Source: Escherichia coli
GTDB lineage: Bacteria > Pseudomonadota > Gammaproteobacteria > Enterobacterales > Enterobacteriaceae
NCBI RefSeq assembly: GCF_003334385.1
Contig: NZ_QOWN01000004.1
Length of the DNA: 64,000 nt
Direction: 5' to 3' (one strand)
In this document: positions 2,720 to 5,838 of the stretch, one piece after another
Position numbering within the stretch: the first letter of the stretch is position 1
Layout of the letters: every line of letters starts with the position of its first letter
Translations under genes and position numbers: made by a program
The notes under the pieces: generated by a model
What the model saw: only the letters and a program-made list of their open reading frames with translations
What the model was told of the DNA's origin: nothing
Databases searched by the model: none

Positions 2720-3857
2720 TCAGGCGTCACGCGGTAACCCTTTTTCAATCACCCGAACCAGACGCTGTTTTTTCGGCAATTGCACTTCGACTATGCACGC
2801 ATTTCGTCTCTCTATTTGCTGCGCAATCGCCCACGCTATGTGCTCATCGAGAAGTGGGAGCTCACCTTTACGACTTTCCAGCGCTGTCAAAATCGTTTCA
2901 TCCCAAGGGGCATTGCCTAATGCTACGGCGATATTACGCAGCCAACGCAGGTGACCAATACGACGAATCGCCGATCCTTCCGTGACTTTTAAAAACTTCT
3001 CTTCGCTCCAGGCGAATAACTCAATGAGTTCCGGTGCGTGTAGCGGCTTACGCGGGCTGAAATCCTCTTCTGTGGTGAGTTGTGAATAGCGATTCCACGG
3101 GCAGATAAGCTGGCAGTCATCGCAACCGTAAATACGGTTTCCCATTAACGGTCGCAACTCTTCCGGGATCGCCCCTTCAAGTTCGATGGTGAGATAAGAG
3201 ATACAGCGGCGAGCATCGACGGTATATGGCTCGACGATGGCACCGGTCGGGCAAATCGTCATACAGGCCACGCATTTGCCGCATCCTTCCTCGACTGGTT
3301 GATCCACGGGCAGCGGAATATCGACCAGCAATTCGCCTAAAAAGAAGAACGAACCGGCCTCGCGATTGAGGATAAGTGAGTGCTTACCTGTCCAGCCGAG
3401 CCCAGCTTTTTCAGCTAACGGGCGCTCGAGAATAGGCGCAGAATCGACAAACGGTCTAAAATTCAGCGAAACACAATGTTGCTGAATCATCTCGCCCAGC
3501 TTTTTGAGTCGGTTGCGCAGAAGTTTGTGATAGTCACGGCCCAGCGCATAACGGCTAACATAGCCGAGTTTGGGGTTTTTCAGCGTGCTGGCAAATGCGG
3601 CGTTAGCAGGAAGGTAATTCATCCGCACGCTGATCACGCGCAGCGTACCGGGCAATAACTCATGAGGGCGAGCGCGCAGCATACCGTGACGTGCCATCCA
3701 GTCCATTTCGCCGTGGTATTGTTTGTCCAGCCATGCTTGCAGTTTGGGCTCGGACTCGCTGAGATCGGTATCGGTAATACCTACCTGCTGAAAGCCCAGT
3801 TCCAGCCCCCACTGTTTAATTTTTTGCGCTAACTGATTGAGATCGAGGGGCTCTGAC

Positions 3858-3859
<2 letters not shown>
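2720..3859 (-). CDS. queG: epoxyqueuosine reductase
   Basis: ORF track 2720..3967; start trimmed to ATG giving [18 protein letters not shown]..., 379 aa; Cys-rich 4Fe-4S ferredoxin motifs CGKCVACMTICP / CDDCQLICP. Confidence 0.9.

Positions 3860-5838
<1,979 letters not shown>

Follow-up and report, generated by a model that had tools for sequence, protein, structure and literature searches.

How two divergent genes of Escherichia coli, queG and nnr, are expressed when their start codons share bases, and whether the sharing has a role of its own, were the questions raised by the window, the whole 64,000-nt stretch of DNA that was analysed. In its sequence (gctctgaCATGacggaccatacaATGaag), the tetranucleotide CATG is formed by C3857, A3858, T3859 and G3860, in the plus-strand context GGGGCTCTGA-CATG-ACGGACCATACA-ATG-AAG. 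The queG ATG is the complement of 3859..3857, whereas the first nnr ATG (ATG1) is read on the plus strand from 3858..3860, so that bases 3858-3859 are common to both; a second in-frame nnr ATG (ATG2, codon 6) begins at 3873 (Table 1).

The start junction and its conservation

The ORF list and RefSeq place queG and nnr next to each other on opposite strands, with transcription pointing apart. The minus-strand ORF was identified as QueG (NCBIfam TIGR00276, 508.9 bits, cutoff 200) and the plus-strand ORF as bifunctional Nnr (NCBIfam NF007856, 1028.8 bits, cutoff 703), both scores lying above the curated cut-offs, and both halves of Nnr were matched by NCBIfam models (TIGR00197 and TIGR00196, YjeF_N and YjeF_C). 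The earlier note had read from the letters that the two ATGs share two base pairs, and the RefSeq annotation of K-12 MG1655 carries the identical 2-bp overlap (queG 4392928..4394067 on the minus strand, nnr 4394066..4395613 on the plus strand), as do the annotations of E. coli strains 504239 and 536. Positions 3400-3950 of the window are 100% identical to K-12 MG1655, and a 1.1-kb stretch of the window was matched in all 5426 complete E. coli genomes. The 91 bases around CATG were at least 99% identical in 4637 of the 5426, and E. coli 536, the most divergent strain among those listed, differs only at 3821, 3833, 3837 and 3839.

Table 1. Features of the queG/nnr junction, in window coordinates.
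Feature	Position	Strand	Remarks and basis
Shared CATG	3857..3860	both	queG start and nnr ATG1; window sequence, RefSeq, conservation
queG CDS, epoxyqueuosine reductase, 379 aa	2720..3859	-	TIGR00276, RefSeq, N-terminal alignment
nnr CDS from ATG1, 515 aa, bifunctional NAD(P)HX epimerase/dehydratase	3858..5405	+	NF007856, RefSeq
Putative Shine-Dalgarno sequence GAGGGG of nnr ATG1	3845..3850	+	queG codons 3-5, mainly CCC CTC
Alternative in-frame nnr start ATG2, codon 6	3873..3875	+	weak Shine-Dalgarno sequence; variable column
Candidate -10 box TAAAAT of the first nnr-operon promoter	3457..3462	+	queG codons 133-135 (AAT TTT AGA)
Candidate extended -10 of queG, TGGTATACT	3899-3891	-	nnr codons 12-14 (AGT ATA CCA)
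nnr 5' leader, about 388 nt	3470..3857	+	antisense to queG codons 1-130; transcript end as given in PMC7373196
queG 5' leader, about 24 nt	3860..3883	-	antisense to nnr codons 1-9; transcription begins at about 3883 (PMC7373196 quoting Conway 2014)
Region transcribed from both strands, about 414 nt, RNase III-processed dsRNA	3470..3883	both	as given in PMC7373196

Conservation was assessed in 81 sequences, the window and 80 other Enterobacteriaceae species with Nnr identities of 73-98%. The 80 species are the closest relatives, and they were retrieved with six peptide patterns that included MTDHTMKK, which could tilt the sample slightly toward sequences retaining the Nnr N-terminus. In all 80 species queG and nnr were head-to-head in an unchanged register. 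The junction column read CATG in 80/81 sequences and CATT in a single one (Salmonella enterica subsp. arizonae), where the codon after CATT is ATG and the two starts lie one base apart. Taken as a bare sequence feature the overlap is trivial, the chance of a C before an ATG being about 1 in 4; the conservation of CATG, unlike its mere presence, exceeds chance.

Relatives at 45-50% Nnr identity were represented by seven loci. A called queG was head-to-head with nnr, which was followed by tsaE, in five of them, and in a sixth (L089) the unannotated gene upstream reads as queG; amiB and mutL came next wherever the contig extends far enough. The gap between the queG and nnr starts ranged from -2 to about 73 nt in these relatives, with a CATG overlap in one locus (L085) and, after re-reading of the queG start, in L089. 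Across relatives the start junction took the forms CATG, CATTATG and CATGATG, or carried a +1 frameshift. The start-codon overlap thus comes and goes, which speaks against any function specific to the 2 shared bp.

Two loci, L087 (GCA_000828815.1, a 708-kb contig) and L084, had no queG upstream of nnr. In L087 the gene directly upstream of nnr, read from the same strand, belongs to the RNase T family (orn-like), and amiB is missing as well, which suggests a reduced genome and the loss of queG.

Among gene overlaps, the head-to-head class of coding sequences is the rarest, and it is often a wrongly called start. The queG-nnr pair likewise shares 5'-end bases of opposite strands; the shared part is only 2 bp, and both starts are backed by comparative evidence. 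That the overlap is an annotation artefact arising from a wrong queG start is highly improbable. The near lack of a Shine-Dalgarno sequence (predicted -2.2 kcal/mol, very weak) would speak for such an artefact, but CAT at 3857-3859 was present in 81/81 species, no other in-frame ATG, GTG or TTG for queG was found from about 3883 to codon 57, and the QueG N-terminus, M-S-E-P-L-D-L, aligns with the N-termini of QueG from distant relatives. The queG leader is moreover U-rich, and no unusual structure was found in the leader and start region, whose stability did not exceed that of shuffled sequence (z = +1.09); a U-rich, unstructured leader would be expected to allow initiation without a strong Shine-Dalgarno sequence. 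The leader segment GACGGACCAT (3860-3869) was identical in 69/81 species.

The queG mRNA also contains an out-of-frame AUG (3869..3867), located 15 nt from the 5' end. The 17-codon ORF headed by this AUG spans the queG start, with a stop at 3818..3816 on the minus strand. The AUG has no Shine-Dalgarno sequence (+1.6 kcal/mol), and its CCAT is kept in 72/81 species and lost in Buttiauxella.

Choice of the nnr start codon

The earlier note had left open that nnr begins at 3873 rather than at 3858. The in-frame ATG at that position is indeed present, whereas its use as the E. coli start is disfavoured by a weak Shine-Dalgarno sequence and by the codons found there in other species. The GAGGGG motif lies 7 nt upstream of ATG1 and 22 nt from ATG2, with a predicted duplex with the anti-Shine-Dalgarno sequence of -7.2 kcal/mol for ATG1 versus -3.2 kcal/mol for ATG2. 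The predicted unpaired probability was 0.88 for ATG1 versus 0.20 for ATG2. The Shine-Dalgarno block TCGAGGGGC was identical in 70/81 species, with single changes in the remainder, and the third positions of the queG codons that carry it, CCC and CTC, both less-preferred codons in E. coli, were 100% and 95% invariant, respectively.

Across the 81 sequences the ATG2 column read ATG in 36, GTG in 16 and TTG in eight, and a non-start codon (CTG, CTA, GAG, ATA or CTT) in 21. The ATG1 frame remains open in these 21 species, which must therefore use ATG1; in some of the species (Buttiauxella, Cedecea) ATG1 is the sole usable nnr start. A 45%-identical Nnr homologue whose starts lie 6 nt apart, without overlap, still begins M-T-D-Y. 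The strong, conserved Shine-Dalgarno sequence and the 21/81 non-start codons at 3873 point to 3858 as the likelier nnr start, and on these comparative grounds we consider it probable that E. coli nnr begins at ATG1.

Translation of E. coli nnr from ATG 3873 only, which would leave a 13-nt gap between the two genes and make 3860-3872 conserved only as queG leader, is by comparison unlikely. In its favour are four Kosakonia species, in which a +1 insertion after CCATA leaves the ATG2 equivalent as the sole usable nnr start (MKKNAASIPH). The block CATGACGGACCAT is nevertheless unchanged in them, and since it is kept where ATG1 is out of frame, it may reflect the queG leader more than nnr codons 1-4. 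Many distant Nnr homologues also start 5-10 residues after E. coli residue 1, and the TIGR00197 match begins only at residue 17, which leaves the first five residues outside the conserved domains and suggests that they are probably dispensable. Set against this are the weaker duplex and mostly base-paired ATG predicted at 3873, the 21 species that cannot start there, and an invariant GAGGGG that is spaced correctly for ATG1. Use of both ATGs, giving two Nnr forms five residues apart, is less likely still: both are in frame in E. coli, and ATG1 alone is usable in Buttiauxella and Cedecea and ATG2 alone in Kosakonia, but there was no evidence of a second initiation event, and nothing suggests a functional difference made by five extra residues that belong to no conserved domain.

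In the supplement text of four papers on start-site or N-terminal mapping (PMC4909307, 10.1101/520783, PMC5576327 and PMC11005335), no entry was found that maps the Nnr N-terminus or ribosomes initiating on nnr. No solved structure of E. coli Nnr was found, and the alignment to the T. maritima structure begins only at residue 61 and says nothing on the Nnr N-terminus. With ATG1 as the preferred start, the choice between the two codons alters only five N-terminal residues, all outside conserved domains. The TTG at 3837 was also considered as an nnr start and rejected, as it has no Shine-Dalgarno sequence (+1.3 kcal/mol) and is lost in E. coli 536.

In the Kosakonia loci (L050, L055, L061 and L063, comprising Kosakonia spp. 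and a MAG of the same sequence), ATG1 heads an out-of-frame ORF of 20-21 codons, MTDHRNEEKRSKYTTLCLANG, which extends over the real nnr start, located 16 nt further on. Kosakonia keeps the strong Shine-Dalgarno sequence before ATG1, so this short ORF may well be translated.

Promoter signals within the partner gene

Published transcript ends were available second-hand, from the supplement of another paper (Conway 2014, as quoted in PMC7373196), and, being RNA-seq ends, are accurate to a few nucleotides. As quoted there, the divergent yjeF/yjeS transcripts overlap at 4391701-4392114 of U00096.2, by 413 nt; the plus-strand promoter lies at 4391701, with its transcript running to a terminator at 4408049, and the divergent queG promoter has the coordinate 4392114. 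Window positions were obtained by subtracting 4388231 from U00096.2 coordinates, a conversion fixed by printed small RNAs (e.g. CAUGACGGACCAUACAAUGAAG, at 4392087-4392109) and also supported by the identity of 3400-3950 with K-12. The quoted ends then fall at about 3470, in queG codon 130, for the nnr operon, and at about 3883, in nnr codon 9, for queG. Together with the conserved -10 boxes described below, these literature ends indicate that each transcript begins beyond the start of the other gene, and that the two have complementary 5' regions. Leaderless translation of queG or nnr was rejected, since the ends quoted in PMC7373196 give leaders of about 24 and about 388 nt, respectively. No coordinates matching the queG or nnr transcript starts were found in the Cappable-seq supplements.

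Along both genes, the conservation profile of the 81 species had the normal three-base periodicity except in a few blocks with frozen third positions. Both candidate -10 boxes were located from this conservation before the transcript maps, and the published ends matched afterward. The region of the plus-strand box TAAAAT, TCTAAAATTC, was identical in 80/81 species, and the box ends 7 nt before the published nnr-operon transcript start at 3470. The minus-strand box TATACT is part of the extended -10 of queG, and its end lies 7-8 nt before the published start of the queG transcript (about 3883); its block, read on the plus strand as AGTATACCAC, was kept in 78/81 species. The third positions of nnr codons 12-14 were 100% invariant, the ATA codon included, and the AGA codon at queG 135 was likewise invariant across species; in E. 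coli, AGA is a rare arginine codon and ATA a rare isoleucine codon.

The freezing was tested by counting third codon positions at least 95% identical across the 81 species, inside each block and elsewhere in the same gene. Such positions were enriched in queG codons 2-18 (9/16 inside, 16/205 elsewhere, p = 4.8e-6), in the TAAAAT block of queG at 3448-3470 (6/8 inside, 19/213 elsewhere, p = 2.8e-5) and in the TATACT block of nnr at 3890-3901 (3/4 inside, 3/186 elsewhere, p = 7e-5). Synonymous-site variation is thus lost in exactly the Shine-Dalgarno/leader and -10 blocks. This is the mutual constraint that the earlier note had proposed: the same bases are codons on one strand and promoter, leader or Shine-Dalgarno sequence on the other, so that synonymous sites are frozen. 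Its related claim, that the promoter and the ribosome-binding site of each gene lie inside the other, agrees with the quoted ends at about 3470 and 3883, with the two -10 boxes, with the Shine-Dalgarno sequence in queG and with the queG leader in nnr. This embedding of signals holds whichever ATG nnr uses.

A consensus sigma-70 and terminator scan of 3400-4300, in which the sigma-70 search requires both hexamers, returned nothing, and a recognisable -35 was absent from both promoters. The -10 assignments consequently rest on position and conservation, by which TAAAAT and TATACT would be the -10 boxes of the nnr operon and of queG, respectively. By-eye comparison of the TAAAAT region with sigma-E and sigma-S motifs was unconvincing, and, apart from a single match under the gathering score, an Rfam scan of 1800-4200 returned only three tRNA-Gly genes.

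The two promoters differ in how far they can be followed. Distant relatives keep TG-n-TAnnnT over the nnr S-[IL]-P-[HY] codons, in the form of TGGTAGGCT, TGGTAAGCT or TGGTAGACT. The retention of this box and of head-to-head loci at 45-50% Nnr identity suggests that the tight packing and the queG promoter in nnr are old. The TAAAAT box in queG was not conserved where Nnr identity falls to 50% or below, and, as far as the compared sequences go, the exact position of the nnr-operon promoter appears restricted to Enterobacteriaceae. Taking the start and promoter evidence together, the head-to-head pair is very probably genuine and very compact, with queG read from 3859 on the minus strand, nnr most probably from 3858 on the plus strand, and the promoters face-to-face.

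A further conserved block, ATAAGTGAGTGCTTACC, was observed at 3372-3388 (queG codons 157-162), which places it 82-98 nt ahead of the point where the nnr-operon transcript begins. The block was identical in 61/81 species, synonymous sites included, and differed at 1-3 bases in the rest. An activator site or an element acting at the RNA level would be conceivable; compared by eye, the block bore no convincing likeness to a CRP site.

Transcript overlap and possible interference

The genes diverge and their promoters converge from about 414 bp apart. Transcription of the nnr-tsaE-amiB-mutL-miaA-hfq operon from its first promoter (TAAAAT, 3457-3462) would start at about 3470 inside queG, and that of queG, from the extended -10 at 3899-3891, at about 3883 inside nnr. 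The 5' part of each mRNA is antisense to the other, so that the two could pair into dsRNA and be cut by RNase III, and opposing RNA polymerases in the shared stretch could collide, with transcriptional interference as the presumed result.

Published data document the pairing. As given in PMC7373196, a dsRNA of Lybecker 2014, MS-212, pulled down with a dsRNA antibody, maps to 4391717-4392100, and the p19-captured clusters E-284 and S-361 map to 4391754-4392109, with 5,634.8 RPM. In the same source, yjeS/yjeF (queG/nnr) S-361 is a top-20 protein-coding source of RNase III-dependent 21-22-nt duplexes in stationary phase. ExcludonFinder (PMC12288877 Table 1) also lists the pair, its 16 divergent excludons being those present in at least 50% of the 58 RNA-seq samples of MG1655. 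The possible interference raised by the earlier note is therefore upheld only as far as dsRNA formation and RNase III cleavage (PMC7373196) and the excludon listing (PMC12288877) are concerned, whereas an effect on expression is something that we infer.

A stronger reading would make the promoter pair a conserved switch that tunes queG against nnr-tsaE-amiB-mutL-miaA-hfq through polymerase collision and RNase III cleavage. We regard this as doubtful. If it were true, selection would have kept the switch for as long as the queG extended -10 has stood in the nnr S-[IL]-P-[HY] codons, that is, down to 45-50% Nnr identity, and the promoter pair would not be a by-product of compaction. The start-codon overlap itself probably plays no separate part and is the conspicuous end of a larger arrangement, the face-to-face promoters.

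The locus resembles several known systems, and queG-nnr itself figures in both the Conway 2014 divergent operons (PMC4161252, as quoted in PMC7373196) and the ExcludonFinder excludons (PMC12288877). With divergent excludons it shares face-to-face promoters and complementary 5' ends. In PMC4161252, 136/388 divergent operons overlap at their 5' ends and the yjeF operon is the most complex of the data set (14 genes, 8 promoters, 4 terminators); the overlap of 413 nt, as quoted, exceeds the average of 168 nt. Unlike most divergent pairs, queG-nnr has zero intergenic DNA, so that every signal sits in coding sequence. RNase III-processed sense/antisense dsRNA is likewise described for rsd-nudC and asd-yhgN (Huang 2020, PMC7373196; Lybecker 2014); rsd-nudC has northern blots and promoter fusions, whereas comparable follow-up of queG-nnr was not found in the available text of PMC7373196. 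In the Listeria excludon (cited in PMC12288877 and PMC4161252), as at queG-nnr, a long 5' transcript region is antisense to an opposite-facing neighbour. Reciprocal expression has been demonstrated for the Listeria system, whereas queG-nnr is documented only for co-occurring strands and RNase III cleavage.

K-12 is already annotated with the 2-bp coding overlap as standard, and published genome-wide catalogues already contain the overlap of the transcripts, the dsRNA and the designation as an excludon. The additions made here are small, namely the -10 boxes proposed from conservation, the frozen codons AGA, ATA, CCC and CTC, the comparative case for ATG1 and the Kosakonia exception. The arrangement is of little significance past the queG/nnr locus. 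The locus does offer a clean textbook case of gene packing, with starts, Shine-Dalgarno sequence, leader and two -10 boxes placed in the partner's codons, where the embedded signals hold rare or less-preferred codons in place. For recoding or deletion of either gene, supposedly silent substitutions in codons 12-14 of nnr, or in codons 3-5 and 133-135 of queG, would be likely to alter the expression of the neighbour, a risk that extends to the first promoter of the operon carrying mutL, miaA and hfq.

Other observations were made on the neighbouring features. An annotated 17-codon ORF, yjeV (2684-2737, plus strand), overlaps the queG 3' end by 18 nt (2720-2737) on the opposite strand. In PMC12288877, yjeV-queG is listed by ExcludonFinder as a convergent excludon and yjeV-queG-nnr is one of three "noncontiguous operons", which would require plus-strand transcripts to read through queG from end to end. 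At the other end, tsaE, read in the same direction as nnr, starts at 5377 and shares 29 nt with the 3' end of nnr (5405), an arrangement consistent with translational coupling in the operon. Upstream, at 2151-2447, three identical tRNA genes with a 112-nt spacing were observed (annotated as tRNA-Gly, glyV-glyX-glyY in K-12). The window does not agree throughout with strain 504239, its best match, since the annotation of that strain shows a different spacing ahead of the second tRNA-Gly copy.
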